A DNA stretch of 64,000 bases from Marsupella aquatica (taxonomy: Eukaryota; Plantae; Marchantiophyta): positions 17,350,357 to 17,414,356 of the forward strand of contig OZ316892.1 of NCBI GenBank assembly GCA_973895155.1, written 5' to 3'. Within the stretch, counting starts at the first letter, position 1; every line of letters starts with the position of its first letter. Shown here piece by piece: positions 3,325 through 57,714 of the stretch. The notes beneath the pieces were generated by a model. That model was not told where the DNA came from. It saw only the letters and a program-made list of their open reading frames with translations, and searched no databases. Made by a program: the position numbers and the translations under genes.

Positions 3325-6300
3325 ATGGCACACCTAGGCATGAGCTCTGTCAGATTGGTAGAAAAGGGTGGGGAGGGAGGAAAGCCTGATACGCCAATTT
3401 GTGTCATGTCCTTCAAAGAAGGGCAGACTCTGGCAGATTTCCGTCTGAAATGTGTAGGAGCAGTAGAGTTTGACTTTGATTTTTGGGATGAGAGGTTGCC
3501 TGGTCGAGTCCGGCGCTTTTCAGAGAAGACTGTTGGGGTGACTGAACTTCAAGGGACAATTTACGTGATTGCACAGTTACCCTCAGTTGCCTTGCCTACT
3601 GAGAGGGTCACAATTGGTTTCTCTCATTCATCTGCTGCCACTGTGTCTAATTTGGCAGGCACAATTCCCTTGACTGAAGGACAAACAGAAGGGGTGCCAG
3701 TACAGGCTATTGTACTGCCTGTCACAGGCTCCTTTGAGTCTCACCTCATGTCTGAGGCTGCATCAAAGACCTGGAATGATGAGTGGTTGAAGCTACGATC
3801 CTGGGTAAACCAGAAGGGCTTCAGTGAGCACAAGTGGAGAGTGCGGATGTGGGATGAGGGAGGGGAGTGTCGAGGTCATCTAGAATGCTTAGAGTGTAGG
3901 GAGACTTATGGGAATGCAGCCAATTCACAGGTGCTCAAGTCCATCGCAAATTGCTTTAGCAATTTCAAGACAAAGCACCTGACCAACCCTAAACACAAGG
4001 AGAACTGGTGTAAGCGAAGGGGTATACCTGGAGCTTTGGTGATGGTTGCTGACACTATACAACAACTATTGTTTGATCATAGTATGCAAATAGGGGCTGG
4101 TGTGGAAATAGTGGGAAAGTTGAATGCAGAGGTAGGTGGGTGGTAGAAGTGTTCTCTATCACACCATCTCCCACTGATCCAACATTTGCACATAGGTCAT
4201 TCTTGTTTAAGGTCAGATGTACAGTCTGTGGCAAGCTACATACTGACATGTGCCCTAAGAAATCAAATTTGGAACACAATTTAAGGCAACACCTTGTTAG
4301 TCGGGATCATATGGATGCACTTGAGAACATTGTCACCAGTACCCAGGCTGCACTGAGGGCAGGGAAGAAGGGGAGACCAAGGAAGCCTGATGCTCGTGAT
4401 CTATTTCCATCTCAAAATTCTATTCTTAATTTCTTTAGAGAGGACAGCTCTGCTGCAGGGAGCAGTTCAGGCAGAGGTGGGTTGTATTCCTCCATTGAGC
4501 CAAGTTTAAGTTTGCTTTGTTGGGGCCTGTGGGAGTCAAAGGTGAAGTGGACAGGGGATTCTATGGCTGTGAAAGGCATACTTGATGATCAAGAGGGAGG
4601 AAATATGTGGGATTGTGACCATACAACCTGTGCTGAGGTTTTCAATGTAACTAGTCAGTCAGTTGTTGGTATACAGGGTTGTTTTAGGCACAAGCAATGT
4701 CACAGGGTGTCCATTAATGGAGGTGGTTTTCAAAACCTCACTTGCACTCTATGTGATTCTATAAAACGTGAAGATGATTTTCGTGGCAGGGTGCACAGGG
4801 AAGCGGAAGCATTAGTGCAGAGAGGAGACAGGACTACACAGGGTGGGATGAGGTTGGCATACTTGACCAAAACCAAACTGAGGGAACATGTTGGTAACCT
4901 CACCACTCGCTTTAGGAAACAACGTTGGCTGTTGGCACGACAGGCTCAAAAAATTTGTGCCCTGAGTGTTAGGCGAAAGAAGCTAGAAGATTTATTAGGA
5001 GTAGCCCATGATAGGAAAGATTTAAGACTGTTTCTGAGAAATATTGTGAATGCACATAGATGTGGTGCTTTTGGTGGCAAGGAAGGGTTGTGGGATTTCC
5101 TGACAGATGTAGCTAAGAACTTGCAGAGAGTTGCTAAGGGTTATCGATACAGTAAGAGAACCAAGGCCTTTTCCCAAGCCATGTTTCAGTTTGGAGGCAG
5201 ACAAGTGGCTCGTTGTTTCCAGGCTAACCTAGGTGGTCCAGGTCTAAAGACCTTGAAACGTGATAGAGCAAAACTCCCACCCTTTAGAACTGGCATTCGA
5301 AAAGAGATATTCCAGGAGGTGTGCAGAGTACTGTGTGCATCAAAGCAGTCACTTGGAATTGCAAGAGATGTACCAGTAATGTTTGTTGAGGATGAAACAA
5401 GGATCAAAGAGAGACCCAGGTTTGTGTTTTTGTCTCTGTAGTAAATTAGCTTGTTTTTTTGAATGTGTTGGGTGAGTTTGCGTGTCATGAACTGATGTCT
5501 ATATTCTATTGTGTGTGACAGATGGGAAGCTAAATATGACAACCTCATTGATTTCTGTGGCCCCTTAGAAGAGCACACATGTTCTTTTGGCTTGGAAGTA
5601 CTGGTGGAGCAGGTACAGAAGGATATGACAAGATTGTAAGTACTTTTGAGCAATATGCCAAAGGCATGTATGCTAGAGTAATCATTGTCAATCCTCTGCA
5701 TGCAAAGATGCCTAAATTGGCATTGTGTGTTCTACCAACATGTAACAAGTTTCGAGCTCCCTGGGTAAGAGAGCATTGGGTGCAGCTGAAGTCCATGTGG
5801 GACACACATTGCAGAGACAGTGTTGGTCCTTTGTTGGGCCATGCTAGTGATGGTGATGCTCGTCGTAGGAAATTGATGATGGAAGATTATACTCCTGTGA
5901 ATGGTTCCTTTCCTAGGTATAGTGTAGGATGGGTTGGGTGGCAATACTCAGTGTCCATACTTCCGAATGGAGATCTATATGGTTTTGGAGACCAAGACCC
6001 ACCTCACAATGGCAAGAAGGCAATTAACCCATTGGACCGAGTGTCTGCTATGTTAGTTCTTGGTGATCAGCATGCATCTTTGTCATATGTCACATCTGTT
6101 TATAACCATTATGCAATTCACAAGCATGGTTTGCATTGGGATGATGTGAATAGGACAGATAGACAAAACTGGGCTGGCCCACAACGAATAGCTTCCAGGA
6201 GAGTGCAGGCCTGCCTGCAGCATATGTATGAGCGACGAGATGTTCGTCATGACAGAAGCTTTGGGACCATGATATACTTGGAGGTTTGTGCAGACTACAT

Positions 6301-7921
6301 AGATATTTTCTTCTCTGTTAAGCATGACCTAAGAACCCGTGTTGTCTTGGCATCAAAGGTATCTTGGTTCTTCCGATTGTGGAGGCTATGGTTGAGGTAT
6401 GGTGATCATTCTGTGACATGGAATGCTGGATCTATCACAGAGAAGAACATGATTTTTGTGCAGGCTTTCCATGATATCAACATGTCTTGTCATTTTGTAG
6501 TATTGTTAGTCTGTGCCTTTCGGGACAAGTTCCCATATCTGCAAGCTAGTACCATTTCACTAGCTGGGATCAGATTGTTGTGAGATATTTTTTAGCAAGG
6601 TAGGTGGCATGAGTGGCCATGAGAGAAATTATGACTTTGGATCTCTACTGGACAGTGCAGTGGGACTGAATCGACTAGCTAGATTAGAGTATGGACCAGA
6701 GGGATTGAAGATACGTCGATCACATGATAAACAGGATCATGTTTGGGCAACTTTACATCCTCTGGATGAAGGAGAACAAGCTCCAAATTTATTTGATTAC
6801 TCTGCAGTTCTGACTAATGAGCTGGTTGTTGATGCTCTAAAGGAAGGTTTGCAGGAAGCAAAGGATTTGTTGTGCAAGCTGAACATGTCACCAAGAAGTT
6901 CTTTGCCAGCAGCAAAAAGACGATGGTGGGTTCATCCTTGGGAAGTGGAGGCAGAGACTTGGCCGGATACAAGTGTCATGAAAGAGGCTGTGTTATGTGA
7001 TGATGCTGAAGACACAGTTGAGCATCGATCTACTGTAGGCCCTAGACTTGAGCCCCCAATTGGAGAGTTTCTAGAGTTTGAAGATCCTGAAGAAGATCTC
7101 AATCGGATTGATTCATGGGACACTCTGGACAGTCAGGATTGTATTGAGCCACTAACAGTTGATGATTGTTCGATTGAGGTGGATACTAACCCATTTTGTG
7201 AGATGGAGACACTAGGACATGAAGTAAGGCATGTCTTGGCTGGAGTTCAAGCAGACTTAACTGATGTGCAGACACCCCGGTCAGTAGTGTCTACTGTAAC
7301 TTATGAGGGAAGGACTATCTACAAGTCCACTCTTGTGAGTCAATTGTGCTGCAATCCTTTCATGTCAAAGGATAGGCTAACTAGGATAGCCCAGAAGACC
7401 TATTACACTAATGGTAAGGAGAAAGAAAATGGTGACTCTGTGACTTGTTTGGTTGACATTGGTACTGATATAGCAGTTTTGTTTGAGTCTGCTGCAGAGG
7501 TTGGTCCTTCTACCAGATCATCCAAGTCAAAGAAGAGGAAGGGAATAGATAAAGGGCCTATTGTTGATGCAACATCTGCAAAGAAGGAATATTGGTTGGG
7601 TAGGATTGAGTTTATGATACAGAAGAATGGCTCCCATTGGGTCAGACGTCGGAAAGCAATAGATCTGTTGGACAAGCCTGTACCTGCAGTTGGACAGAGT
7701 GGAAGTGTGTGCCGCTTGCAGTGTAATTGGTACAAATCTACTGTAACAACAAAACTTTGTTCACTTATGATGCAACAGATGGACAATGGATTGATATTGA
7801 GATGGTAATTTCAAATGTGAACTTGACAATGAAGTCTGGGATAGTTGACAGAGTGTATGTACTAGATGCAAGTGACCTACAGGCTTTGACTACATACATT
7901 CAAAGTGTGAGTAAATTGTGA
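3325..7921 (+). pseudogene. P-element-like DDE transposase, disrupted (frameshifts near 4140, 5604, 6545 and 7745; stop at 6561; intron 5420-5521)
   Basis: Two N-terminal C2H2-like fingers (CLEC...KHLTNPKH; CTVC...QHLVSRDH). After splicing: VMFVEDETRIKERPR|WEAKYDNLIDFCG (D at 5391), GHASDGD (D at 5849), QDPPHNGKKAIN (DxxH 5996-6007), DRQNW, GTMIYLEVCADYIDIFFS and GSDCCEIFFSKVGG (E at 6582). The order and spacing match P-superfamily motifs (DEMxI, SDxG, DxxHxxKxxRN, SQDxxExxF). Confidence 0.75.
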
Positions 7922-8010
7922 TATATAATTTACTATTATTAATTAAAAGTAGTTTGTTATGTGTGTATGTGATGCATTTGTAGGGTTAGTGGGAGGGAGT
8001 AGAGTAGGGG

Positions 8011-8069
8011 ATGACGGATTGGCAAATTGAGATTTATGCTCAATCAGGGGTTCAATTCCCCTCCGTCAT
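8011..8069 (+). ncRNA. Putative D-armless tRNA-like (mascRNA-like) structure 3' of the transposase
   Basis: ATGACGG/CCGTCAT 7-bp acceptor-like stem, ATTGGCAA linker, ATTGAG/CTCAAT hairpin, AGGGG-TTCAATT-CCCCT T-arm containing a B-box. The fold is conserved in the second copy at 8961-9019. Expression is unknown. Confidence 0.55.
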
Positions 8070-8960
8070 GTGTACATCATCATGCATGAGTCTGTGAAGG
8101 AAGGTAGATGTGGACATCATCATGCGGGAGTTTGTGAAACAAGGTAGAGTACCGATGCCTTGAATAGGCAACCTATGTTGTTCGGTTACCTATTCATAGT
8201 ATCTGGCACCCACCATGCTTCACTATTCAAGAGTGAAAACTACAAGTTGTTGGATGATATTTACAAGATATTCAGCTTCATGATGTAAATTCATTGAATG
8301 TATCAATTTGCATCAATTGGCTCTACACTATTGAGGTACTTAACTTTCCTTAATAGACATTTTTTAAATCATCATAAAACTTTCCATAAAGTTTTATAGG
8401 GGTAAACAATTCAAAAAATGGTCGCTTTTCAGAAAGTAAGGGAGTGGGGAAAAAAAAAATTCACTTAAAAGTTAGGGGGTCCAGACCCTAAAATGTCGCA
8501 CGTGATGTAGAGCCCTACATACAGTGACCCCCCCGAGCTATATGGAGAACCCCCCATCACCTTTCATATCTAGACCCCCATACTTATTAAGTAAAAATAA
8601 TAATTCCCTCCCCCTTTCTTTCTTCTAATATTCTAAAATCCAATTTGTTTTGCCCCTAAAATTTGTTCAGTAAAGTCTCACATATCAATAAAAAATCCCT
8701 TGAAAGAAAAGTTAAGTGTATGCAAGTACCTTGTCAAGTTGTATGTCAAACATGGTGCCTTTTTCGACCTCAAACTTCTTTCATTTCAATGCATCATTTA
8801 TAGTGTGTACCTAATGGTTATCTCAATATAAACTTTGCGTACATAGGTGGGATAGCCTTTAAGGTCACAACATGAATAATCCATTCCATCAACAATCAAT
8901 TTGAAACCAATCTTACTCCATCCATACTCCATTGCAAACTTCTTTTGAGAGACGTAACAT

Positions 8961-9019
8961 GTGACAGAAGGGAATTGAACCCCTAATTGAGAAAAGATCT
9001 CAAGTTGTCAATCCATCAC
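8961..9019 (-). ncRNA. Second copy of the tRNA-like structure
   Basis: Minus strand reads GTGATGG ATTGACAA CTTGAGA TCTTT TCTCAAT T AGGGG TTCAATT CCCTT CTGTCAC. Same 59-nt length; stems are kept by an A-U to G-C swap and G-U pairs. Confidence 0.5.
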
Positions 9020-9109
9020 CCCTTATCCTATCCCACTACACCCAGTAATATAAATAGAACAACACATATATACTCTCAAAAACCAAATAGTAGCATGACA
9101 TTCATACCA

Positions 9110-10335
9110 TTGTTTGAAGATACTAATCCAATGCACGTCTATCTATTGGATCCAACACATAAATACTATCCACAACCCCTTCTTTCATGGTTAAGCTAAC
9201 ACTAGCAATGACCATCTCAATATCCATCCATTTCAAATCAGTGGTATCATATTTGAATCTACTCTTAGCAATAGTACTATACCAATTTAACAATGTTAGG
9301 TATTGCCTCTACCTTGTACTCGGCTAACTGCAATTAGCATTAGCTCTAGTTAGACACTAGCACAGTTTGTGAAGTGGCTCACTCGAGTGGGCATAATACC
9401 TTTGAGAGTTCCAGTGTGGAACTCATTCTACACAATGAAGTCTTTGGTGAAAGACCTAGAGAGGAGATATGCCTTAGAGCTCCGTGGAGGAGGCTATGGT
9501 GGACCATGTATGATTTGATCATTAATGATTTCCTTGACGATAGTGGACGTAGCCCATCTGAGTGAATCACTTATATGCTGTGTAGTCTCATGGTCGTGCA
9601 TGAGTTGTTGGCGTGCGCATTGTTAATGTGACTCTAGTGTCGATCTTGGTTGACATTTTTCCCAATAAACAAAGTTCATAGATGCTACTTGAGTGCCCTG
9701 TGAGTGGAGTTGGCCTATCCATCAAATCAATTGGTGAATGACAATTGCTCCATCTACTACCATACTTCTGTCTTATTTGGACAATACGACCCAACCAAAA
9801 ATATTTCTTATCTGCTAAGATTGCCTCCACAACAACCTTACTATTTCCTTTCCCTCCCTTCCCTTTTCCTGATCTAGTACTTGGAGTAGGATTATCATCA
9901 GACTCAAATGCAATTGCACAATCAGTGCCAACATCAACAAAACATGAGTTAGGATTGGCTTCTTGCACTTTTCTCTTGCGAGTACTATAGTATAACACTT
10001 GTTTCACCCTTGTCAGCCTATCTTTTGACAAATGTGGATTGCCTACCAGCTGGCTTACTAGAGTGGACTTATAAATCACCTTGCCTTCATAAATAACAGT
10101 CGACACTACCTTGGTACAGCATGGACAACTGATCCAAACACATGCATGCCAAACTTCGTGGCCTAATGTCTCAAGCTCGTCTGAGGGGTCTACACCAAAC
10201 TATAAGTCATCTCTGTGTTCATCATCTGAATGCATCTCAAGAACAACACGGGGAACAACAATGGGATCTATTCAGATCATCCTCAAAATCTTCCAACTCA
10301 TGAAAGTCTCCAGTTGGGTAAGGACCTATGGGATC
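9110..10335 (-). pseudogene. C-terminal remnant of a paralogous P-like transposase, split by a solo LTR
   Basis: GDFHELEDFEDDLNR, ETLGHEV, STVIYEGKVIYKSTLVSQLVGNPHLSKDRLTRVK, VDVGTDCAIAFES, FWLGRI and, past the LTR, NWYS...YDTTDLKWMDIEMVIASVSLTMK all align with the translation of 7060-7921. Confidence 0.85.
9294..9667. mobile_element. Solo LTR (374 bp)
   Basis: TGTTAGG...CCCAATA (terminal CA mutated to TA) with 5-bp TSD AACAA at 9289-9293 and 9668-9672; inverted homolog at 13798-14174. Confidence 0.85.
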
Positions 10336-10431
10336 TGGTGGTTGGTGCTCTACTTGCTAATAGTTATGCACTTGATCTCGGCTGAAACTTGAACTTCAAA
10401 CTCAGCTGCACTCAACTTGGCTTACTAGCTA

Positions 10432-10727
10432 CTCGGGGGTCTCACTATATGGGGACCTCCCCATCGCCTGCGACGTTTTTAGGCCTTGGACCCCCTAAAA
10501 TGTAAGTTTTTTAATAATTTTTTAACCCCTATAAAGTTGGAATATTCTTGGAATATTCTAAAACTTGGATTAAAAAGACCCTAATGTTCTTATAAATCTC
10601 AAAATTGAATTTAAAAGACCCTATTGTTCTTCTACAAAAATTCTTAAGTCTTCCCTTAGAACCAATAAAATGACCTTATCCTTCATCGCACGTGATATGT
10701 CATTTTTGTGGAAGTGAAACCCCCGAG
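10432..10727 (-). mobile_element. MITE copy 1 of the P-like family (296 bp)
   Basis: TIRs CTCGGGGGTCTCACT / AGTGAAACCCCCGAG; perfect 8-bp TSD ACTAGCTA at 10424-10431 and 10728-10735. Confidence 0.93.
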
Positions 10728-10829
10728 ACTAGCTATTGCTGTCCAAGCAAAGGTTCAAAAGCAATACCCGCACAATAACGCCAAGCAATAGTTGCACGAC
10801 AATGTCGATCAAGAGCTTGTTGTCAAACA

Positions 10830-11245
10830 GTAGCAACTGAACTCACTTCAAGCTCAATGTGGAACAGTAGCAGCTCCCTCACAATTGCCAAAACACAATG
10901 TCAAATAACACAACTCAATGTGGAACAGTTCAAGCAACTCACTTCAAGCTCATTGTGGTCCGACATAGCAGCTCGTGCGATCCCTCACAACTGCCACAAC
11001 TCCCACTGACAGCGCGTAGCAACTCCCCGGCCAGCTCAATGTAGCACATTATTTAGCAAATCCCACACGACTCAACAACTCAATTGACAGCCGATAGTCC
11101 ACAACCTCTTGATTGAAAGTCGACAGCAACTCCCCAGCTCAATCTCAAACATCTGCAAACTTCAAGCTCAATGTGGAATGCAACTGCTCCCTCACGACTA
11201 CCACAACTCCCTCAAACATGACTACCACACCTCCCTCACGACTGC
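10830..11245. repeat. Degenerate subterminal repeats inside the deleted element
   Basis: Recurrent CTTCAAGCTCAATGTGG / GCTCCCTCAC[A/G]ACT / CCACAACTCCC units, about 4-5 copies. Confidence 0.6.
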
Positions 11246-12500
11246 CATAGCTCCTGTCTCTCGGTCAATAGCGCGCAACAGCTCTGCTTCACTAGGAGCA
11301 AACACCTGAAAGCATATCTCAAAAGAAATGAGATTGATATGATAGACAAACAAAGGAAGGCCCGCAACAGAGCAACTTGCATACGTATATGATTGTGGGT
11401 GGGGCCGGTCAAATGGATAGTGGAGGGAAACGGCATGGGAGTGGCACGAGAGTGGACTGACAAGAGGCAATGTATGGAGGAAAATGACACACCTAAAATG
11501 GGACAATTTCAAACTAGTGAAACCCAAGTCAAACCCTAAAACATCCCTTCGGGGACATCCGATAAAGTCAAACCCTAAAACATGAGTCCCCCAAAAACTA
11601 GACCGATTTAAACCATTCCCAAATTCTTGCCTCTAACATGTACATGACTTTGGAAAATATATAGGAAATTTATGCATGCCATGTGTACCAATCATATAGT
11701 GACACGTGTACTTAGCATAATTCAACACAAAGATACCCTAACTTCCTTGTATGTCTTCCATTTACATAGTCACAAATACTAATATGCCTACTGTTCTTAA
11801 AAGTAGCCCAAGATATTAAATTGATCCTATTGTTCTTACACAAATCTTCTTAAGTCTTTCTTAGAATCCAATTAACGGACCCTATACTTTGTTGCACGTG
11901 ATGTGCAATTTTTGTGAAGTGAGGCCCCCAAGCCTTCTTGTCAATGACACCAACTGATCTGCATTTGTTGGTACAATCTGAAGCTTAGCAGAATCCACTT
12001 GCTGCTCTTGTTCCTCTAGCATATGAACCAACTCCATGTTTTGAGCACTTTCTTCTCTTTGATCATATACCACATGATCAATCTCCCCCTCAACAAGATT
12101 CAGGATAGGAGATTTTCCTTTGTCAGTGCAAGAGACCTGAGTCCTTTCCCCTCCTTTAATTTAATAATCTGGATTCATTGAAAGAAATATCCCCATTGAT
12201 AACGAGTTTACATGCAATAGGATCTCATAGTTGGTAGGCCTTTACATCACTCTGATACCCAAGAAAAAATATATTTTTTGGATGTAGGATATATGCATCA
12301 CTTCCAAAAACTACCAAGCCATGATAGTTTGTTTGTTGCTTATAATGCATTTCAAATGATATTTTAAAATTGATTGCACTAGAAGGAGAAAATTTACCAA
12401 ATAAGCTGTAGTATTGACAATTTTTGCCCAAAATTCGTGTAGTAAACCTGTTTGACTCAACATAGTTTGTGATTGCTCCAACTACTCCGTGACCGCTCCA

Positions 12501-12782
12501 CTCGGGGGTCTCACTATATGTGGACCTCCCCATCACTTGCAACATTTTTAGGCCTCGAACCCCCTAAAATGTAAGAAAAAAATTTATTTTTTATACCCTA
12601 TAAAGTTGGAATATTCCAATTGGATCAAAAAGACCCTAATGTTCTTAGAAGTCTCAATATTGAATTAAAAAAACCCTATTGTTCTTCTACAAAAATTCTT
12701 AAGTCTTCCCTTAGAACCAATAAAATGACCCTATCCTTCGTCGCATATGATATGTCATTTTTGTGGAAGTGAAACTCCCGAG
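12501..12782 (-). mobile_element. MITE copy 2 (282 bp)
   Basis: CTCGGGGGTCTCACT...AGTGAAACTCCCGAG; TSD CCGCTCCA / TCGCTCCA (one C>T difference). Confidence 0.9.
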
Positions 12783-12954: not shown

Positions 12955-13251
12955 CTTGGGGGTTTCACTTCCACAAAAATGGCATATCACGTGCGACGAA
13001 GGATAGGGTCATTTTATTGGTTCTAAGGTAAGACTTAAGAATTTTTGTAGAAGAATAATAGGGTCTTTTAAATTCAATTTTGAGACTTATAAGAACATTA
13101 GGGTCTTTTTAATCCAAATTTTAGAATATTCCAAAAATATTCCAAATTTATAGGGGTTACAATTTTTATTTTTTTTCTTACATTTTAGGGGGTTCGAGGC
13201 CTAAAAACGTCGCAGGCGATGGGGAGGTCCCCATATAGTGAGACCCCCGAG
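12955..13251 (+). mobile_element. MITE copy 3 (297 bp), inverted relative to copies 1 and 2
   Basis: CTTGGGGGTTTCACT...AGTGAGACCCCCGAG; perfect TSD GTATCCAA at 12947-12954 and 13252-13259. Confidence 0.93.
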
Positions 13252-13797: not shown

Positions 13798-14174
13798 TGT
13801 TGGGAAAATTGCCAACCAGGATCGACCTAATAGTCACATCAACAATGCGCACGCCAACAACTCATGCACATTCACCATGAGACTACACAACATATAAGTG
13901 GTTCACCCGGATGGGCTTCGTCCACTGTCGTCGAGGACATCACTAATGATCAAATCATACATGGTCCATTGTAGCCTCCTCCGCGGAGCTCTAAGGCGTA
14001 TCTCCTCTCTAGGTCTTTCACCAAAGACCTCACTGTGTAGAATGACTTCCACATTGGAACTCTCTAAGCTATTATGCCTACTCGAGTGAGCCACTCCACA
14101 AACTGTGCTAGTGTCTAACTAGAGCTAATGCTAACCGCAGTTAGCCAAGTACAAGGTAGAGGCAATACCTAACA
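13798..14174. mobile_element. Solo LTR (377 bp), same family as 9294-9667
   Basis: TGTTGGG...CCTAACA with TSD ATATA at 13793-13797 and 14175-14179. Confidence 0.9.
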
Positions 14175-18303: not shown

Positions 18304-18564
18304 ATGGCGATGGAGCGCCACGGGGAGTCGTACTACGGTGGTAATTATGGGGGATCGTTCCAGGAGCCTTACCAAATGAAGCGCAACAAGGCTACGAAAT
18401 CGAAGGTCTGGGATATGAGGATGCAGGATCCAGAAATGCAGCGCAAGAAGCGTGTTGCTTCATACAAAGTGTACACTGTGGAAGGGAAAGTGAAGGCTTC
18501 GGTCAGAAGCGGTTTGCGGTGGATTAAGAATAAGTACATTGACATCCGTTACGGTTGGTGGTAA
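18304..18564 (+). CDS. DUF3511 family small plant protein (86 aa)
   Basis: DPEMQRKKRVASYKVYTVEGKVKASVRSGLRWIK is the DUF3511 signature. ATG at 18304; (CT)n tract upstream at ~18043-18059. Confidence 0.88.
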   Translation: MAMERHGESYYGGNYGGSFQEPYQMKRNKATKSKVWDMRMQDPEMQRKKRVASYKVYTVEGKVKASVRSGLRWIKNKYIDIRYGWW

Positions 18565-21016
18565 TATTCGCACCGCTCATTCTGTCTCGACCTTCACAGC
18601 CAAGTGAAGGATCCTCATAGGGATCGTGACTGTAGTAATTGGAGGATAAGTTCCCCAGTTTCGTAAACGCGGCCAATTTTTTTCTTTCGGATGCTCATTT
18701 TACTGCTGAGCATTCTGATATGGGCGAGTCAAATAAATGTTACCTTGCCGGTGATGACTCGCGCGGGGTCCTCCATTTGGAACGAACGTGAACAAAGTCA
18801 AGGAGCCAGTCATCGTGTTTTAGATCAAGGAGTGCTGAGGTGACGCTCGCCAGGATTGTCACAGCCGATGCTCTGGATGAATCTGAGTGACCAGCCAAAA
18901 CTCTCTCCGTCATGCGCGTTCGCTTGTTATGACGTTGCCGGCAAATGGACTGGATGATCGATTGAAGGCTTTTGGGCCACTTTGTACAGTTTGCACTATT
19001 CTTTCACTTTGTGTTTGTAAGATTCATGGGTTCATTCGTTCGGTATGTCGAGCGACGTCTTTCCCTCTTGTTAATGTGAGGAGGTTTGACACACTGAATC
19101 AGAGCCTGCGGACAGGAAGCTTCCGGCCTCCCTGAAATCTCAGTCGAGGGCTACCGCAGGGAATTAGGGACTCATGCTGTTCATGAGCTGATATGAGAAG
19201 TGGATTAGATATGGAATCCCTTGGATCCACACTGCTGGAATTGGTCAGGCGGCTGATGGTCAAAGACTGTTGACTCACGGAGTCTTATCTTGCCGGCCGA
19301 CACGAGAAGAAACGTTTCCCTGTTTTCAAAATTCCCTGGGTTATAATTTTCTCATAGAAGCAATAAGATTGCCGCCAGGAACACGTTGTTTCCACATTTG
19401 AGCTTCTCTTAATTTTACATTTGAGCTTCTCTACCGAACTCTGCACATTGCTCGTTAGACCGACTCATGCCGAGTGTTGCTTGATCGTTGTTTTCCGGAC
19501 CAGTATCCACGGAAGTCCGTGAATGTCTTGCTGCGCGGCTGGATTTGTGTTATAGAACTTATCACCCGGAATGAAGCTGTCAGCAATGTCCGTTCCATCC
19601 GCACCTTTGTTAGGACTGCTGCTTGTATAAACGGATTCCGATGGCACGTTCCTTTTGATTTTTCTTACCGTTGCAGATTTCTCGAATCTCTGGAAATGTT
19701 CTGAATAAAACGTCGTAGGCAGATTTTGATATGATTTGGCAAAACCTTTCGGTCGAATGGGGATTTGGTTGTTTATGTAATTCACGATTCAGTGCAAGAA
19801 TTTTTCGCATATAGGCCGGTCACGGAATTCCTCCAAGAAGGGGCCAGTCAAAGGGGCCAGTCTAATTTACAGGGTCGGTGAAACGCTACATTATGCTCCA
19901 GGTGCTTTGAATTCGACCTTGACCAGGCGTTTACCATTGCGAGAAATGCCTGTGATTCCTGTTACTGATGTACAATTTTCTTGAGTCCGAATGGCATCCC
20001 TCTCACGTTGAGTCATGCAAACTGTCACTTCCCGGTGCATAATTCAATTCCAGAATCTCCTGTCCCTCGGCACGAATCTCTGACATATTTTCAAATGGTC
20101 ATGAACTTTCTCTTACCGGTTTCAATATTTTGATTATTGAACGCCGAATGTGAAAAACTTATGTTTGAATGACTAGTTTGGTGAAGTTATGGCACCTCTC
20201 TGATGAATCGGCGGATTATTTATCGGGCGAGGTTTGAGTTGCTTCGACGGCAAGGCGATCAAGGGATTGATCCATATCATAATGCCAATCATGTTAGTAG
20301 TTTGTGTTCCGACTCTTAATTAATGCGGACGTTAGTGATCTTCTACCGCATTGGATTCTGTGAATCTCAGTCGATGAAACCCACCAACCTTCTGTACCGT
20401 TATTCCGTCCGAAGGAGTTCATGATTGTAGGGATCGATTCTTCCATATTCCAAGTCACCAACCGCCGCGTGGTGCCGGATCGCAAGTCCAGTACCGCGTA
20501 CTACTGTCCAAACGCTCTAGACAGTCAGCAGGTTCGTGCTCAACTCCACGACTGACATCATGCTGAAGAGAACAAGTTTATTGATCTCCTGTGATGAGTG
20601 GGAAAGGGGAGGCGGGGCCCCCACATAAATACATGCCAGAGATACAGATGGATTTTAATCCATTAGGAGGTAGAACATAGATCTACGGTGAAATGTGATA
20701 CGTACAGGGCACGTCCCTACTAATCATCAAAGCAAGCAAGCGGATAACAAGCCGTAATATCCGGGGGAGTGGACACAGCAGAACAGCCTGATACAATCAT
20801 ACTTCTCACTTAGAAGCGCATGGTACTTTGCTATGAATCATGAAGCAAAGTGACTGTCAACACCCTCCCTCGCTCTAAGTGTATGAGAAAGTAAACAGGA
20901 TGTGACAAGATTACGTAAATCACTTGGATGTACACGGAGTTTGATAGGTCCACCGGAGCAGATCAAACAGGCTACAGACAGATCAAAAGAACTAAACAGA
21001 AATGTGGCGTTGGCTT

Positions 21017-24000
21017 TCAAAGTGGTATAGTATCGGGAATGCAACTCAAGTCCAGAACTCCAATAGCAGATCGATGTCGTTCAAAGTGAGGTCGGGATAA
21101 GGCCTTGGTGAGTACATCAGCAGGTTGAAGATCAGTTGGGATGTACGTGAGGTTTAATTCCCCCTCAAGGACGCGTTCCCGAACGAAGTGGTGATGGACT
21201 TCGATATGTTTGGTGCGAGCATGAAAAACGGGGTTTCGTGCAAGCTTGATGGCACCTTCGTTGTCACAGTGAAGAGTTGGACGAGAAGAGTGAAGAGCAT
21301 CAAGAATGTGATGGTCTTTGCAATTGAGTGTGACCTCAACATGGGGAATGAGTTGAAGTTCCAGCAGCAGTCGGCGGATGTATACAGCTTCTTGTGCCCC
21401 AGATGATAGAGCCATATATTCTGATTCCGTAGAAGATTTACTCACTGTGGCTTGACGTTTGCTGTTCCAAGAAACGGGGCTATCCCCAAGAGTAAGTAAA
21501 TATGCCCCAACAGATCGGCGAGTTGTAGGGCAGGTAGCCCAGTCGGCATCGGTATAAGCAGAAAGAGTGAGTGGAGCATGCCGTTTGTAAAAAATGCCGT
21601 AGTTGAGAGTGTGTCGAAGATATCTGAAGATGTGCTTGGTGGCTTGCATGTGATCTTCATGTGGATCTTGCATAAAACGACTGACTAGGCTGACAGCAAA
21701 GGATATATCAGGGCGAGTGTTGGTAAGGTAAATTAGTTTCCCTACCATCCGACAATAAAGATGAGCGTCGACAGGAGGACTGGCGGAATCAGTAGATAGA
21801 ACGGTACCTGTCGGTAAGGGAGTGAGGGCCGGAGTACAAGAGCCCATATGAAATTCTTGAAGAATTTCATTGCAGTAGTTGTGTTGATGCATTTTGATTC
21901 CGGTAGCAGAAGAATCAAATTCTATCCCTAGATATTTTTGAACATGGCCAAGATCCTTCATGCTGAAGTGCTTACGAAGTTCAGTCTTGTGGGAGCTAAT
22001 AAGAGTATCGTTGCTCCCAGTGAGAAAAAAATCGTCAACATGAGTGAGCAACACAGTAATGTCTGATCCATCAAGAAAATAGTAAAGATTGTTATCAAGT
22101 AAGCTACGAATCCAACCAAGCTTCTGTAATAGTGCATGTAAAGTGTCGTACCAAGCTTTGGAGGATTGTCTAAGGCCGTAGAGTGAATTGTTGAGATGGC
22201 ATACAAGATGCTCCTTACCAGCAATGCGACGTCCAGGAGGCTGATGCATGTAAATATCTTCATGAACTTTGCTGTTTAGAAAAGCCGTGTCGACATCCAT
22301 GTGAGTGATCTGCCAGCCACGGGAAGCACATATGGCAGTGATAGTTCGGAGAGTTGTCCATTTGACCACTGGCGCAAAAGTCTCAAAGTAGTCGATGCCA
22401 TGTTGCTGATAATTGCCCTTGGCAACAAGACGAGCCTTCAGTCGACCATGAGTGGCAGAGATAGGTTTCCGTTTGAAGACCCACATAGATGGAATGGCGC
22501 GCTTGCCAGGGGGTAATTCCATAAGGGTCCAAGTGTTGGTTTTATGGATGGAGTCCATCTCTTCGTCAATAGCTCCAGACCAGTCAGGGTGAGTGAGTGC
22601 TTCACGAAGAGAAATGTTGTCAGTGATAGTTGGATCAGAAGTTTCGATAGCACAAGCCGATAATTCTAAAGGAGGAGGTTCAGCATAAAACCCAAGAAGC
22701 CTAGAATTATGAGAGCGGAGTCTGCCAGAGCGACGATATTCAACTGGAGCTATGGGTGGATCTGCTATAACCGTGTCAGGCGGAGCAGTATCCTTGTGAT
22801 CTCCTAGAGTGGAGTCTGGGTCGGTATTATCATCGGGAGCAGGAACAATGTCTGGTATAGGTGGAGCAATTGAGTCAAAAGGCGATAAATCCCCAAAATC
22901 GATGGAAGTGGGTTCAGGACCAGCAACGGCAAAGATGCCAAGTTCAGACTCATCAAAACGAACATTGCGACTGATAATAATTTTACGTCTACTGGGCGAG
23001 TAACAACGATATCCCTTGGTGTTTTCATCGTAACCAACAAAAATAGCTTTGAGAGATTTTGGTTCAAGCTTAGAGCGTAATGGAGCAGGGATGTGAATAT
23101 ATGCTGAGCAGCCAATGACTCGGAAATGACTAACGTCAGGTTTGATTCCATGAAGATGCTGAAAAGGAGTTGTTTTGTAGAGAGCTCGAGTGGAACATCG
23201 GTTCAGAATATAAGTAGCAGTCCGCACCATCTCTTCCCAAAGAGGTGCCGGAAAATGAGCACCAAAGCAAAGGCTGCGAGCCGCTTCAATGAGAGTTCGA
23301 TTTTTACGCTCAGAGACACCGTTCTGGTGTGGAGTGTAGGCGGCAGTGAGTTGACGAAAAATGCCTCTAGTGGAGCAGAATTGTTGAAAATCATGAGAAA
23401 TGTATTCTCCACCTCGATCGGTTCGCAGGCATCCAACCTGATATCCGAATTGACTCTGGACAGAAGCACAAAAGTCTTTGAAAGTAGAAAAGACTTCGGA
23501 TTTGAAACGAAGGAAGAATGTCCAGGTATACCGTGTGTAGTCGTCGGTAAATGTGAGGACATAGCGAGAGCCTGCTAAGGATGGTACACGGGCTGGGCCC
23601 CAAACGTCAGAGTGAACTAGCTCAAAAGGCCTAGTTGTTTGTGTCAGAGAGTGCTTTGGAATTCTTTCCCGTGTTTGCTTGGCTACCATGCAAGTGCTGC
23701 ATATTGTGTTGACTGGCAAAATATGTGGAATGCCGACAACTAGGTGAGTTGAACTCATGTGTGCTAATTTCTGAAAATGGATATGTCCAAGGCGTTTGTG
23801 CCAAAGTTCAGCATTAGATGAAGAAGTAGTGGCGATGTGACATGAAGCTATCGGTAAGGAGAGTTGCTCAAGCTTAGGTGGAGGCTTGGGAACTAGAGTG
23901 TATAGGCGAGTCACTGGATCACGTGCCCCATGCATGCTAACTTGATTTTCTTGATCTAACACCACACACTGTGAGGAATTGAAACATATAGTTTGTCCTA

Positions 24001-24538
24001 AATCAGCCAGATTTCCAACAGAGATAAGGCTACGACGGGCACGCGGCACATACAAAACGTTCAAAAGTTTATTCTGATCAAGAATGAGGGTGCCCTTACC
24101 CTTGATATCCAAGGCAGCCCCACCAGCGGTTGCCACCGAGGATCCAGGGGCAAGAGCTACAAAATTTGTGAGTCCAGATTTGTCACTAGTGAGGTGGGTG
24201 TTAGCTCCAGAGTCGAAGATCCATTCCGGGTGATCAGGCTGTGCTATCACCTCAGTAAAATTGGCCTCCAGAATCTGGTCAGCTGTAACCGTATCGACAT
24301 TCTCAGGTGCAGCATCAAAATATTCTTCAACGTCGGGATTCGGGTTTGGACCAAAATTTGTCTCCACGAGGTTTGCAGCACGTCCAGCCCCAATGTTCAT
24401 CTGAGTCATACGAGCGGTGAGGCGTTGCAACTCAGTTTCGAGACCACGGAAAGGGCAGTTGCGGGCAACATGGCTGGGGTCGCTGCACGTGAAGCAGGCC
24501 CCACGGTTGTTGTTGTCTCCACGGTTGTTGTTGTTCAA
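21017..24538 (-). CDS. Copia polyprotein, main frame (zinc knuckle, protease, integrase, RT, RNase H); the frame stays open upstream to ~24667
   Basis: CFTCSDPSHVARNC, WIFDSGA, LWHKRLGH, VHSDVWGP, LRTDRGGEY, QNGVSERKNR, KARLVAKG, LYGLRQS, HVDD, DADWA, RTKHIEVHHHFVRE, ADVLTKAL; PR-IN-RT-RH order. Confidence 0.95.
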   Translation of the reverse strand: MNNNNRGDNNNRGACFTCSDPSHVARNCPFRGLETELQRLTARMTQMNIGAGRAANLVETNFGPNPNPDVEEYFDAAPENVDTVTADQILEANFTEVIAQPDHPEWIFDSGANTHLTSDKSGLTNFVALAPGSSVATAGGAALDIKGKGTLILDQNKLLNVLYVPRARRSLISVGNLADLGQTICFNSSQCVVLDQENQVSMHGARDPVTRLYTLVPKPPPKLEQLSLPIASCHIATTSSSNAELWHKRLGHIHFQKLAHMSSTHLVVGIPHILPVNTICSTCMVAKQTRERIPKHSLTQTTRPFELVHSDVWGPARVPSLAGSRYVLTFTDDYTRYTWTFFLRFKSEVFSTFKDFCASVQSQFGYQVGCLRTDRGGEYISHDFQQFCSTRGIFRQLTAAYTPHQNGVSERKNRTLIEAARSLCFGAHFPAPLWEEMVRTATYILNRCSTRALYKTTPFQHLHGIKPDVSHFRVIGCSAYIHIPAPLRSKLEPKSLKAIFVGYDENTKGYRCYSPSRRKIIISRNVRFDESELGIFAVAGPEPTSIDFGDLSPFDSIAPPIPDIVPAPDDNTDPDSTLGDHKDTAPPDTVIADPPIAPVEYRRSGRLRSHNSRLLGFYAEPPPLELSACAIETSDPTITDNISLREALTHPDWSGAIDEEMDSIHKTNTWTLMELPPGKRAIPSMWVFKRKPISATHGRLKARLVAKGNYQQHGIDYFETFAPVVKWTTLRTITAICASRGWQITHMDVDTAFLNSKVHEDIYMHQPPGRRIAGKEHLVCHLNNSLYGLRQSSKAWYDTLHALLQKLGWIRSLLDNNLYYFLDGSDITVLLTHVDDFFLTGSNDTLISSHKTELRKHFSMKDLGHVQKYLGIEFDSSATGIKMHQHNYCNEILQEFHMGSCTPALTPLPTGTVLSTDSASPPVDAHLYCRMVGKLIYLTNTRPDISFAVSLVSRFMQDPHEDHMQATKHIFRYLRHTLNYGIFYKRHAPLTLSAYTDADWATCPTTRRSVGAYLLTLGDSPVSWNSKRQATVSKSSTESEYMALSSGAQEAVYIRRLLLELQLIPHVEVTLNCKDHHILDALHSSRPTLHCDNEGAIKLARNPVFHARTKHIEVHHHFVRERVLEGELNLTYIPTDLQPADVLTKALSRPHFERHRSAIGVLDLSCIPDTIPL

Positions 24539-25275
24539 TGGCGCCGGGAAACGTCCACGGCCCCCTCTTCCTCCAAAATTAGGACCTCCACGACCGCGGG
24601 CACGTCCCCCTGCGTTGTTGAACCGGCCAGTGGGGGGAAAACATGACGGACAAATAGCGCCTCTTCACCAGCATAATTGCGAGCACCACGACGACTCTCT
24701 TCTTCACGAACAATATTCTCCAGTTGGGAGAAGGAAGGCATATTCTCTCGTCCTGCAAGAACAGCTCCGAAGGTCTCCCAACTACGGGGTAGAGCATCAA
24801 TGATTACTCCCTGCAATTCTTCATCAGTAAAAGTGACATCCACAGCAGCAAGATCGTTAAGTAACTCATTGACAGTGCTGAAGTTAGTAGTCATGGTAGC
24901 AGACTCAGGGAATCTGAGACTGAAAAGCTTCCGTTTGAGTACAGCACGGCGAGAAGTGGTGTTGCCTGCACAAGCACGGCGGAGTTCTGCCCAGAGAAAA
25001 GCTGGATCATCAATCCGCACATATCTAGCAAGCATCTTGTCCTCTACTGCTTTAGTCAGCATATATAATGCCTTGTTCTGAGCTGTACGTCGCTCAGCGG
25101 GAGTGGGATTGACAGGATCGTTAGCATCAAAGATCACTCCAAGAAGATTCTCCCGAACTACGTACCAAATCTTCTCCTTGATGAAACTCTGCTTCATCTT
25201 GTAGGACCATAATGGGTAGTTGTTCCCATTAAGTTTCTCGTCCTTGGACATTGAGAAATTCATATCCTGGTTCAT
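24535..25275 (-). CDS. Copia gag (UBN2-type), out of frame with the rest of the polyprotein
   Basis: KLNGNNYPLWSYKM, LWAELRR, IIDALPRSWETF, REEESRR; the last ~35 codons run past the frameshift. Confidence 0.9.
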   Translation of the reverse strand: MNQDMNFSMSKDEKLNGNNYPLWSYKMKQSFIKEKIWYVVRENLLGVIFDANDPVNPTPAERRTAQNKALYMLTKAVEDKMLARYVRIDDPAFLWAELRRACAGNTTSRRAVLKRKLFSLRFPESATMTTNFSTVNELLNDLAAVDVTFTDEELQGVIIDALPRSWETFGAVLAGRENMPSFSQLENIVREEESRRGARNYAGEEALFVRHVFPPLAGSTTQGDVPAVVEVLILEEEGAVDVSRRH

Positions 25276-28200
25276 CGTTCCTGAGTACTATTAAGAAATG
25301 CACAGGGACCTATCACCTATGAAAATAAATTCCTGAGTACTACGGAGAACACGACAGGGATCTATCACCTGCAACGTAAGACTATACAGCTATGACTCCA
25401 AAGCTACGCGAGTGATTCTTACCAACTCGGAACTACAGAAAAATACGGAAGAAAAGACTGAGCCCTCAGGCATTATCCTGGGAAGGCTCTGATACCATGA
25501 AGAGAACAAGTTTATTGATCTCCTGTGATGAGTGGGAAAGGGGAGGCGGGGCCCCCACATAAATACATGCCAGAGATACAGATGGATTTTAATCCATTAG
25601 GAGGTAGAACATAGATCTACGGTGAAATGTGATACGTACAGGGCACGTCCCTACTAATCATCAAAGCAAGCAAGCGGATAACAAGCCGTAATATCCGGGG
25701 GAGTGGACACAGCAGAACAGCCTGATACAATCATACTTCTCACTTAGAAGCGCATGGTACTTTGCTATGAATCATGAAGCAAAGTGACTGTCAACACATG
25801 CTCCTTCGATCCTTCGCACTTTCGCTGGTCAGGTCTCACACCGCTTTCTGCACGACAAAGTGAATCCTATGTTTGCGCTGCGAGCACAGAGCACAGAGCA
25901 CAGTTCTCTGAATCTGTACGCTCCACCGAAGAATTGGTCGCCAAGCGGAATCGAATCAGACCCATCAGCAAGAATGGCGATGAATTTGTGTCCTGCCTGC
26001 ACGTCTCTGGCCTGTGATGATGTCCTCCTGGCTGTGCAAGTGTGCAACCACTCACCCACTGTATCGATTCTCCACGGTAAACAAATAATCTCCAACTACC
26101 AACTCACCTGTAACGATACGTCCATCGTAAGCAATCGAGTACTGCCACAAATGCTCCACATAAGTTGTGAAAGGGAAAAGAAATTAAAGAATTGATTACT
26201 GTAGATGAGTGTTTTTTTACATGTATTTTGTGAGCAAATATAAATTGGGCAGGACGCTGGCTTCAAGGGGGAGGAATATATGTAGGGCCCATCTAATATA
26301 TACTTATAAAAATAAATATTCAAAAGTTGAGGGAAGCCGTTACAACTGGCAAATCAGTCAGATCTGGCGAATCCAACACCTAAAATGCAGGTTTTGGAGA
26401 GTTTCGACGTCCCTTGAATTTTCTATGTATTATTCGCCTGTAATTGAGGGAGGTCAGATTTTGGGGAAAATTAGCCAACTGCTGTACAGATTAAAAAAAT
26501 TGTGGAAGTTGATCTTTTCACGCCCAAGTCATGTCTTGGAAGAGCCCAGAGATGGAGAAGAATCCAACCGAATGCACATTTAGGAGAGTTCGTTTTTTGA
26601 CTTGTTTTTTCCCTTGAATTTTCTATGTATTATTAGCTTGTAATTAGCTGAGGTAAGATTTTGACAAAAACTTAGCCGACTAGATTACTGCTGTAGGTTT
26701 AACGTTTGTGGAAGTTGACCTTGGGACCCCATGACCAAGCACTTTTCACTCCCATCTATTTGTTGGAAAAGGCCAACAGATGGAGAAGACTGTCAGATAG
26801 GGTTGTCATCCTAGCCTGTGCTTTCTTGTACATTCTCTAATGTGGGGAATTCTGCTTGATGACCATATTTACCGGCCTTTGCAGTCTTCTATTTAGTAGG
26901 GCTTTAGTTCCTTTGCCACCGTGAGTGACTTTTCTTGGCTTGTTGGTCTTCTTGGGGTTCCTCTTGTAAGCCCCCTCTATTGAGTCTGCTGCCTTTGGGA
27001 CCCTGACCCGTTTGACACCTTTTGGTCTTTGGCCATTATATATTTTTTCTTTATATTTTGTACCATCGTGGTCCCATACTTCAATTGTACATCCCCAAAT
27101 GTGAATATGTGATCCTATTATGGTTTACCATACAGATAGCACCAAGTTTGGGGATCCCACCACGATTGACTTCACTTTGTTCCAGGTTGCCCTACCCCCT
27201 AGAGACACAGTGTATGCATTGAAGTCCCACTGCTGGACTTCACTTTGTTCAGTCTAAAAGGGTTAAATGAATAGGTTTACAGTTTGTGGAAGTTGACCAT
27301 GGGATCCCATGACCAAGCACTTCTGACACCCAAAACTCTACTTTAGTTAGTCCAAAAGGGAGAAAATGAAAGAGTTTAAAAGTTTGTGGAAGTTGACAAT
27401 GTGACTTCTGACACCCAAAACAGTGAGCATCATAAAAAGAAAACATGCTACCTAAGTAATAAGTAATGTTTGAACCTGGTTCATGTGGGTTGCAATGGTC
27501 CATCAGAGCATTTTGTGAATTATGGTGGTCCATTTCAAGTTGACTTTCAAGTTTGTGGAACTTAGTGGGGCCTGAAAAACAAATTTATTTTGAGTGATTG
27601 GAATAAATTCATATTACTCGATGTCAATGATTGAACACATCATAGATTACCTTTCCTTTCATTTATGGTATCCTTATAATTTCATGAAATTCTTACTATA
27701 CATGATACTATCAAGTGAAACATATGTTTATGGTTGCTAATTTGCAAATGATGTCATCCGAGGTTGTTTGCTGGTTTGCATTAGTGCAGTGCACGGTTTC
27801 TATAAGTAGTCTCAGTGTCTCCTGTCACTACCTGATTGCCCAGGCTTCGGCACAATATAGTTGGAATGATCACCAATACTCGAGTTTCATCCAATTGATC
27901 TTTGTCAAGAAGATTGTTGATTAATTAGGGTGACCTGGATCCACCTGGTTTTGTTTTGGGGACAATGGCACTTGAACCACCTGTCCCTGCTATTGGACCA
28001 AATCGTTCACTTTTTGGTGCTTTGTTAAGGATATTTTTGACTAAGTATGATAACCTAGATACATCAGGTTTTGCTTACAGCAGTTTAGGGTTTAGTGGCA
28101 GGTTAAGTCTAGGTTTGCTTTGTTTAGAAAGTGAAGCCTGGATGGACCGAGGGGTTTGCTGTGAAGCCCTCATGGATCTTCAAAACTGGGACGAACTGAG

Positions 28201-56400: not shown

Positions 56401-57714
56401 TTCAGAGCGAGCACAAAGCATGGATTGAAGATCCCAAATACTAACAGGGGTCCTGCTATCGTCGGTGTTGACCTACTGACAAGATTTGCGAGGTTGGAAG
56501 GTGCTGATGGTTGTCCCCCTAGACGCTTTAGATATGGAATAACTACGATTCCCTCGAGTAGTCCGGGAATAGTGGGCGCAATGTCCGTCAGGTTCACCTT
56601 CCAAATGGTCTGACCATTGTTCTTCTGGACCGCATACTGGCATCCGTCCCAGCTCGAGAAGTACACTGCTCCAATTATGCCGTCGATGGAGGGGGTGGAA
56701 GACACATCGTAGCTTGTGGGGGCGGTCCAACTTAACGACATGCTTCTCACCGTTGCTTTACTGATCTTCGACTCGTCCGGAGCCACGCGAAGATTGCGTA
56801 CTCCCCCTCCATGGTTCTGCCATATTCTCGGCAAATCACCCAAATCCTGCGATTTGCGTATCCATCAAGTTAGTGATTAATCATCGATCTAGCAATGCAA
56901 AGAGTAATGGAAGGTTTATCGGCTGTGAAAAAGTTCTCTATACAAACCTCTTAAAATATCGAGAAAATATATCTATAAAACTTTAAGGATCGATCGATGT
57001 GCTTTTGTTTCTTAGGTGAATTTATGACCTCAACTGCCCGCAAACGCTCTTCAATTAGCGGTCAAATGTGGTATAACGTCAGGGGCAGCAGCATGGTTTG
57101 CATTCCACGCTCGAATTAGTATTATCTTTGTACTCGTTTTGGTAATCGAGCACGCTACCTTCTAGTCAGGCTCAATCAGAAATTCAACTAGATTTACGAC
57201 AATAACACACGATCAGGCTCAAACAGGTTCAATCTGAACTATTACTGTCAAGTTCCGCTGGTCGTAAGTGTAAAAATGTGGAGCTTGCCCAAGATCGATC
57301 TTAGCCGCCGAGCAAAAGTTCTGACAATGAAGTAATACAAACCCTCGTACCAAGCAGTTTTGCAGCCTCAGGATCCGAAAAGTTCCAAAGCGGGATTGAG
57401 ACTTTGTCCCCCGTATATATCCGCGACTGTAAGGGCATTGTCAGATCTATTTACGCCAACTCTAGTTTATATAATTCGCGATGTAATGAAAGAACTTATT
57501 GATTCTCTTTCATCACGGGGACTGCGACTAAGCCTCACGCCACACTGTAATATTCTCTATTTGCAGCATGAGAACCGTTAATAATCGGAACCTTCATAGA
57601 TCTACATGAAATGACTCGTCGATCGAGACTTACATCGCAAAGTACCGGAGTCACAATGAGGGCGCTGAACAGCACGACGATCGCTCCAACTGCTAGGAGC
57701 TTTAGTGATTCCAT
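53405..57714 (-). CDS. Secreted PQQ-type beta-propeller protein, polyvinyl-alcohol-dehydrogenase-like; exons 57714-57634, 56846-56314, 56125-55507, 54710-54492, 53665-53405
   Basis: Signal peptide MESLKLLAVGAIVVLFSALIVTPVLC; WQNHGG, DVSSTP, SRSTP, GTSSQEE...CCTFQG, GAAVWGSSPSID, GPDYDFGEAP, GQKSG; repeated ALDxxTGxxxW tryptophan-docking motifs. Confidence 0.9.

Follow-up and report, generated by a model that had tools for sequence, protein, structure and literature searches.

A selected tRNA-shaped unit behind the transposase gene of P-like DNA transposons in Marsupella aquatica, and its possible role in forming the transcript 3' end

Among described systems, the closest to the element reported here are mascRNA of MALAT1 and menRNA of NEAT1 (Rfam RF01684), sense-strand tRNA mimics of about 60 nt that form the 3' part of much longer transcripts and consist of a 7-bp acceptor stem, a short linker, one hairpin and a conserved canonical T-arm. 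According to a recent paper, no lncRNAs other than MALAT1 and NEAT1 are matured by tRNA-processing enzymes (PMC12941219). A unit of the same predicted architecture was found twice in the window, the whole 64-kb stretch of M. aquatica DNA analysed here, each time on the sense strand behind a transposase stop codon. The mascRNA-sized fold announced in a preliminary description of this DNA was thus recovered, with its 7-bp acceptor and canonical T-arm, and the weak Rfam match of the unit spans the full mascRNA-menRNA model. At 17.3 bits (E 3.3, copy 2), however, this match lies below the gathering score of 42.5, and the match to tRNA-Sec (20.3 bits, E 0.68) is likewise sub-threshold; matches to snoR28 and Plastid-ycf2 were at chance level and were discarded. 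Unlike in mascRNA and menRNA, the U-rich/A-rich triple helix is absent, with no shared U-rich internal loop or A tract in the predicted UTR folds, and the tract upstream of the unit is G-rich, both as originally described. The unit further differs in lying behind a protein-coding gene in a plant transposon, in a host whose RNase P is probably protein-only. Probing of mascRNA revealed a D-arm equivalent with a 7-nt loop (10.64898/2026.01.19.700226), whereas no D-stem is predicted for the unit. In NEAT1, the T-arm hairpin is the most conserved part and the middle hairpin is variable (PMC12941219), a distribution shared by the unit. By analogy, the unit would work like mascRNA, without being a member of the mascRNA-menRNA family.

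Three other systems invite comparison. Plant organellar t-elements are also tRNA-like structures cut by PRORP (PMC4836652); those described are organellar and lack an anticodon arm, whereas the present unit is nuclear, lies in a mobile element and lacks a D-stem. Helenus, Cassandra and Ajax (TRIMp3) are transposable elements that conserve small-RNA-derived sequence, and Helenus, which occurs in plants, keeps the GGTTC motif (PMC10886601). TRIMp3 elements are retroelements using A and B or A and C boxes in their LTRs as a Pol III promoter (PMC10886601), in contrast to the unit, which belongs to a DNA transposon, has no conserved A-box and is positioned behind the transposase stop. Structured RNA at the 3' end of transposase mRNAs is known as ENE and double-ENE elements (e.g., TWIFB1_Osa; PMC7583470); the ENEs of plant and fungal transposon mRNAs have U-rich loops clamping the poly(A) tail, whereas the unit is tRNA-shaped. 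A DNA transposon with a tRNA-like 3' unit was not found in listings of the open-access literature or in PMC8457004, PMC10946416 and PMC10226581; within that scope, the initial impression that no such feature had been described in DDE transposons holds.

Copy 1 occupies 8011–8070 on the plus strand (a 59-nt unit at 8011–8069 and a discriminator-like G at 8070), and copy 2 occupies 8960–9019 on the minus strand (a 59-nt unit at 8961–9019 and a discriminator-like A at 8960), in agreement with the positions first assigned to them. The units start 89 nt (copy 1) and 82 nt (copy 2) past the stop codons of element 1 (7919–7921, plus strand) and element 2 (9104–9102, minus strand). In the fold common to both copies, the acceptor stem has 7 bp and is followed by a 9-nt linker, by a hairpin of 5 bp with a loop of 7 nt and, 2 nt further on, by a T-arm in which 5 bp close the loop TTCAATT; in copy 1, these parts correspond to the acceptor at 8011–8017/8063–8069, the D-loop-like linker at 8018–8026, the hairpin at 8027–8043 and the T-arm at 8046–8062, which includes a B-box at 8049–8059. 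An 8-nt linker and a 6-bp hairpin, as proposed earlier, apply to copy 1 but not to copy 2, in which the sixth hairpin pair (8026–8044) is C-T. All 17 base pairs of the common fold are intact in both copies; for copy 2, folding prediction shifts the T-stem in register. In the middle loop, position 32 is A and position 37 is U, and the loop differs between the copies. ARAGORN called no tRNA in the window, and the unit does not have the cloverleaf with D-arm and the canonical anticodon loop of a functional tRNA gene, no D-stem being predicted. A tRNA-like descriptor, composed after the unit had been seen, matched no site in the 64 kb other than these two and had no match in 100 shuffles, and a two-sequence covariance model matched just the two known copies in the window. 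The linker carries TTG in all four available versions (the two window copies and two versions from loose contig ends), with GA in copy 2 where copy 1 has GG. We take this TTG linker to resemble, in terms of tRNA anatomy, a D-loop without its stem.

The two copies of the unit are identical at 48 of 59 positions (81%), compared with 59% in the upstream flank and 50% in the downstream flank (48% for shuffled sequence), so that conservation beyond the flanks, asserted before, was borne out. The coding sequences of the two elements show 58% identity over 216 aligned codons; the first and second codon positions are 62% and 68% identical, below the value of the unit, identity at the third positions is 45%, and the two elements agree at 15 of 39 fourfold sites. 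At the coding rate, the probability of at least 48 identical positions in 59 is 1.7e-4. The two subfamilies in the window are old, as judged from the divergence of their coding and downstream DNA. Because neutral DNA between the copies is near saturation whereas the unit retains 81% identity, selection on the unit is indicated and a neutral relic is disfavoured.

Assembled contigs from four public runs were aligned to 7985–8100. Contigs of other subfamilies in all four runs were observed to match over the unit only and to diverge at its edges. In run X1, 11 of 12 aligned contigs fit only in part, and the summed depth was approximately 1,170–1,200 inside the unit versus 209–279 outside, a difference attributed to cross-matching, not copy number. 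The variant listing covers only the middle of the unit, between the acceptor strands and away from contig ends. Within this range, five variant sites were listed, the three common ones (8035, 8036 and 8038) all lying in the 7-nt loop; stem variants were rare (8031, about 1% or less; 8047, 0–9% of depth), and no variant was listed at the B-box. Low-depth contigs in all four runs have deletions through the unit, with joints 8026–8184 and 8046–8136, and look like dead copies. These deletions would agree with a neutral relic, that is, a tRNA gene or the head of a tRNA-derived SINE that landed in an ancestral element and is now functionless, as would the lineage-restricted occurrence of the unit, the weak covariation in the window and one listed loose end (X2, before 8012) with an unrelated flank. 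The other upstream loose ends among those listed keep the same G-rich leader context, however, and the 64-kb window contains no free copy of the unit, no SINE tail and no duplication around it. Together with the saturation of neutral DNA, these observations make a functionless relic improbable. Comparison of the sequences indicates instead that the tRNA-shaped unit is real and under selection in this P-like transposon lineage.

The evidence for selection on an RNA structure, as distinct from a DNA sequence, comes from base pairing. The terminal acceptor pair changes from A-U in copy 1 to G-C in copy 2, and three further stem changes give G-U pairs. The earlier statement that the stem changes preserve pairing stands in so far as all pairs are kept; the weight given there to the G-U pairs was overstated, since C-to-T transitions arise by decay anyway. 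All five stem changes between the window copies are transitions, and one change is double-sided. Random sets of five transitions were found to keep every pair in 6–10% of cases (0.3–2% at 50–70% transitions), and a shuffle control of pairing was not distinct from chance (253/500). The pair evidence from the two window copies alone is weak. Loose contig ends, read by eye, supplied two further 5' acceptor strands, GTGGCAG and GTCACTG. A loose-end 3' strand, TTGCCAC (also read by eye, and unphased), pairs 7/7 with GTGGCAG, and relative to copy 1 this unphased combination has double changes at pairs 1, 4 and 6. The consensus of the 3' strand blends two contigs, with an agreement of 0.73, and the X1 version of the GTGGCAG strand begins with T and would mispair. 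The cross-subfamily covariation thus appears stronger than the window pair evidence but unphased. Compared with copy 1, 7 of 61 positions are changed in a high-depth sibling contig and about 11 in window copy 2, suggesting that some of the G-U changes in copy 2 are probably decay.

How might such a unit serve a transposon? The explanation we favour, which was among the options of the preliminary description and to which we give roughly an even chance, is that the unit is a sense-strand tRNA mimic at which nuclear RNase P (PRORP) and RNase Z cut the transposase transcript, so that it ends before the terminal inverted repeat (TIR). Pol II would read through the short 3' UTR and the unit, which would fold in vivo with the TTG(G) linker replacing the D-loop at the elbow. 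Nuclear PRORP would then cut at 8010/8011, the 5' edge of the unit, and RNase Z at 8070/8071, after the discriminator base, so as to release an RNA of about 60 nt. More speculatively, the purpose could be a mature, non-polyadenylated 3' end shielded by the G-rich leader, or else a back-up terminator for transcripts that pass a poly(A) site further upstream (for which ATTAAA at −69 in copy 1 is a candidate signal), so that less read-through reaches the TIR and the DNA next to it. Recognition by PRORP involves the acceptor/T stack, the T-loop and the −1 base (PMC4975455), and the unit presents a 12-bp acceptor/T stack, a 7-nt T-loop, a purine as first base and an unpaired G at −1. In the moss Physcomitrella, there are three PRORPs and no RNase P RNA (PMC4836652). 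PRORP1 is known to need the D-arm, cleavage being more than 1000-fold slower without it (PMC4836652), so the missing D-stem counts against processing, and the linker as a D-arm substitute is the weakest step of the model. On stem-loop substrates, the nuclear PRORP2 and PRORP3 are more active than PRORP1 (PMC4836652). Folding in context also counts against processing. The isolated 59-mers gave folding z-scores of −2.71 (copy 1) and −2.30 (copy 2), with 2/200 and 5/200 shuffles as good; once at least 60 nt of flank was included, the acceptor pairing probability was only 0.01–0.30 and the fold was not favoured. The fold of copy 1 returned in two of four flank contexts when a G-quadruplex in the leader was allowed, and not otherwise.

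That quadruplex is predicted for leader 1 only, the G-rich stretch at 7983–8010 (plus strand), which abuts unit 1 and contains four runs of at least 3 G. Leader 2 (9020–9047, minus strand), before unit 2, has G runs of 3, 3, 2 and 4 and no predicted quadruplex. The core common to both leaders is TAGTGGGA...GGGG. The TAGTGGGA motif, at 7987–7994 (plus strand) and 9043–9036 (minus strand), about 20 nt 5' of the unit, is kept in both copies and was also seen in loose ends that belong to another subfamily. On its opposite strand, the leader resembles the plant snRNA USE motif; this candidate was rejected, as no TATA stands at a common spacing in the two copies.

The tRNA-like fold could also stay uncut in the mRNA, as a 3' UTR element that blocks exonucleases, serves as a decoy for a protein or, in the manner of plant tRNA-like structures, marks the RNA for movement between cells. 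Sense orientation and pairing are explained just as well by an uncut fold, poly(A)-like hexamers lie 3' of both units, and plant transposase mRNAs carry 3' stability structures (PMC7583470); the absent D-stem would also suit this possibility if PRORP cannot cut such a substrate (PMC4836652). On the other hand, the 7+5-bp stack, the T-loop consensus, the purine first base and the discriminator position are all determinants of the processing enzymes. In addition, ATTAAA occurs 69 nt upstream of the unit in copy 1, and AATAAA-like text occurs upstream in sibling contigs, so that the unit may fall outside the mature mRNA. We judge retention as an uncut structure to be rather unlikely.

The main rival to processing is a Pol III/TFIIIC element, with the unit acting as a B-box chromatin barrier or as the internal promoter of an RNA of about 300–350 nt that starts at the unit, as in the tRNA-like part of Helenus. 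This is unlikely in our estimate, although ahead of the other alternatives. The B-box GGTTCRANNCC, pointed out in the preliminary description, is indeed perfect in both copies (GGTTCAATTCC; 8049–8059 in copy 1, without a listed variant, and 8981–8971 in copy 2), the linker of copy 1 holds an A-box-like TGGC, and no run of four T occurs within the 290 nt (chance 0.17) and the 250 nt (chance 0.21) that follow the units. Promoters of this kind are carried by plant and fungal retroelements (PMC10886601). A conserved A-box (TRGCY...YGG) is nonetheless missing, TGGCA being present in copy 1 only and without YGG, and the putative A-box begins only about 29 nt before the B-box. There is no nearby terminator, the unit of window copy 2 itself contains a T4 run, and the downstream body lacks conservation. 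Moreover, a barrier at the DNA level needs neither a paired acceptor stem nor a middle hairpin, and an RNA template is unnecessary for a DNA transposon.

The carrier is, on the basis of a structure model and conserved motifs, a DDE cut-and-paste transposon family of P-like type, in accordance with its first classification as DDE. The model of the homologue P0003 (pLDDT 85) matches the Drosophila P transposase 6p5a (E 1.5e-9; TM 0.72 by target), and the two PDB structure matches at E <0.001 are both P transposase; PDB sequence searches gave no match, and Pfam gave none above cut-off for the transposase family. D210, D257 and H260 are invariant in 33 sequences, giving a DDE site with D(2)H, and the motifs next to these residues are invariant as well. 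Homologues of the transposase numbered 33 among the longer proteins searched, including Riccia and Calypogeia proteins, and 871 relatives at E up to 0.001 were found in a representative library; the Atlas neighbours of the transposase carry TNP-like domains. The closest relatives are P0001 (73%) and the Riccia and Calypogeia proteins (45–59%). The family resembles the P superfamily (Drosophila P, THAP9) in fold, in the DDE site with D(2)H, in 8-bp duplications, which are also made by the Drosophila P element (PMC3698922), and in its short TIRs and MITEs. It differs in sequence (12–13% identity), in its CTCGGGG ends and in its bryophyte host. No THAP domain was detected in the window ORFs or in the 33 homologues, and the family is therefore classed as P-like and kept apart from the P family proper.

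Frameshifts have disrupted the P-element-like transposase gene of element 1 (3325–7921, plus strand). It probably contains an intron at about 5422–5521 and shows the motifs EDET (about 5390), SDGD (about 5850), DPPH, corresponding to D(2)H (about 5997), and CCE (about 6580). The right TIR (8490–8537, plus strand) ends in CCCCCCCGAG, and the left end is outside the window. Just 5' of the transposase gene, on the same strand and with no TIR between, are reading frames for a BRCT domain (769–1338) and a PHD finger (2217–2942), which may be cargo genes of element 1; they were not found in related loci. Element 2 (8538–11933, minus strand; probable 5' end near 11933) is an internally deleted copy of a diverged subfamily and retains a C-terminal transposase fragment at about 10190–9102. 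Its 3' TIR is broken at 8538 by element 1, which sits inside that TIR at 8537/8538, about 13 bases from the end and tail to tail, possibly owing to a preference for the family's own ends. Three MITEs of the same family lie at 10432–10727 (perfect 8-bp duplication ACTAGCTA), 12501–12782 (duplication 7/8 identical) and 12955–13251 (perfect 8-bp duplication GTATCCAA), all without the unit. Having moved without it, they show that the unit is tied to the transposase gene and not to the DNA ends.

The descriptor was absent from all 22 related loci (metagenome contigs, distant relatives with 24–50% identity over main segments), which contradicts the presentation of the feature as family-wide. The covariance model was run on 20 of those loci, the near-duplicates L008 and L009 of L007/L010 being left out, and any match had an E-value of 0.38 or worse; as a control, it found two tRNA-Trp genes at 26.6 bits. 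Since L001, L002, L003 and L013 span the region from the stop codon to the right TIR, at least these absences are real. L001 (138–6287 region) is a P-like element of 6.1 kb that is complete, having both TIRs and an 8/8 duplication. The P-like family thus does not require the unit, which, missing from the MITEs and the distant relatives, is specific to its lineage and dispensable in cis for transposition. This bears on a last alternative, namely that the unit acts as DNA, as a subterminal signal recognised by the transposase or by a host factor, and resembles tRNA only by chance. The unit does lie 420–470 nt from the right end, and the leader contains the family's TAGGG subterminal motif. Against such a signal stand the MITEs with intact duplications and the complete element L001, all lacking the unit, its presence at one end only, and the coincidence of four tRNA hallmarks; we consider it very improbable. 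Viral contigs gave no match, either by protein or by DNA pattern. In prokaryote genomes, the DNA pattern matched two ordinary CPR-bacterial tRNA-Trp genes; since the pattern itself selected them, we take these as generic T-arm similarity, not as an origin. The loci L016 and L019–L021 are more distant relatives, some apparently intron-containing, and judging from them the P-like family may reach beyond plants.

In its wider form, the processing explanation holds that a plant DNA transposon evolved a mascRNA-like mimic independently of MALAT1/NEAT1, that the protein-coding transposase mRNA owes its 3' end to RNase P and RNase Z of the host, that the G-rich tract replaces the triple helix and that an abundant 60-nt tRNA-like RNA is released from a repeated family. 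We put this forward tentatively, as somewhat less probable than not. If true, maturation by the tRNA machinery would extend to plants, to mobile DNA and to a coding RNA of the nucleus, and the convergent mimic would provide a natural case in which to ask whether a substrate without a D-stem is accepted by nuclear PRORP. Even as a Pol III element, a selected tRNA-like unit inside a cut-and-paste transposon would be unmatched in the open-access literature searched.

Several other features were observed in the window. A 370-bp repeat is present at 9294–9665 and 13800–14174 in copies that are 90% identical and on opposite strands, one of them within the transposase fragment of element 2. A Copia retrotransposon at 20564–25797 (minus strand) has identical 300-bp LTRs and an open pol frame of 1215 aa, which together indicate a very recent insertion. 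Reading frames of PQQ-type beta-propellers lie at 54291–56864 (minus strand). The host DUF3511 gene at 18310–18561 points to a liverwort as the probable host, the closest sequence being that of Calypogeia fissa (85%), followed by those of Marchantia and Riccia.
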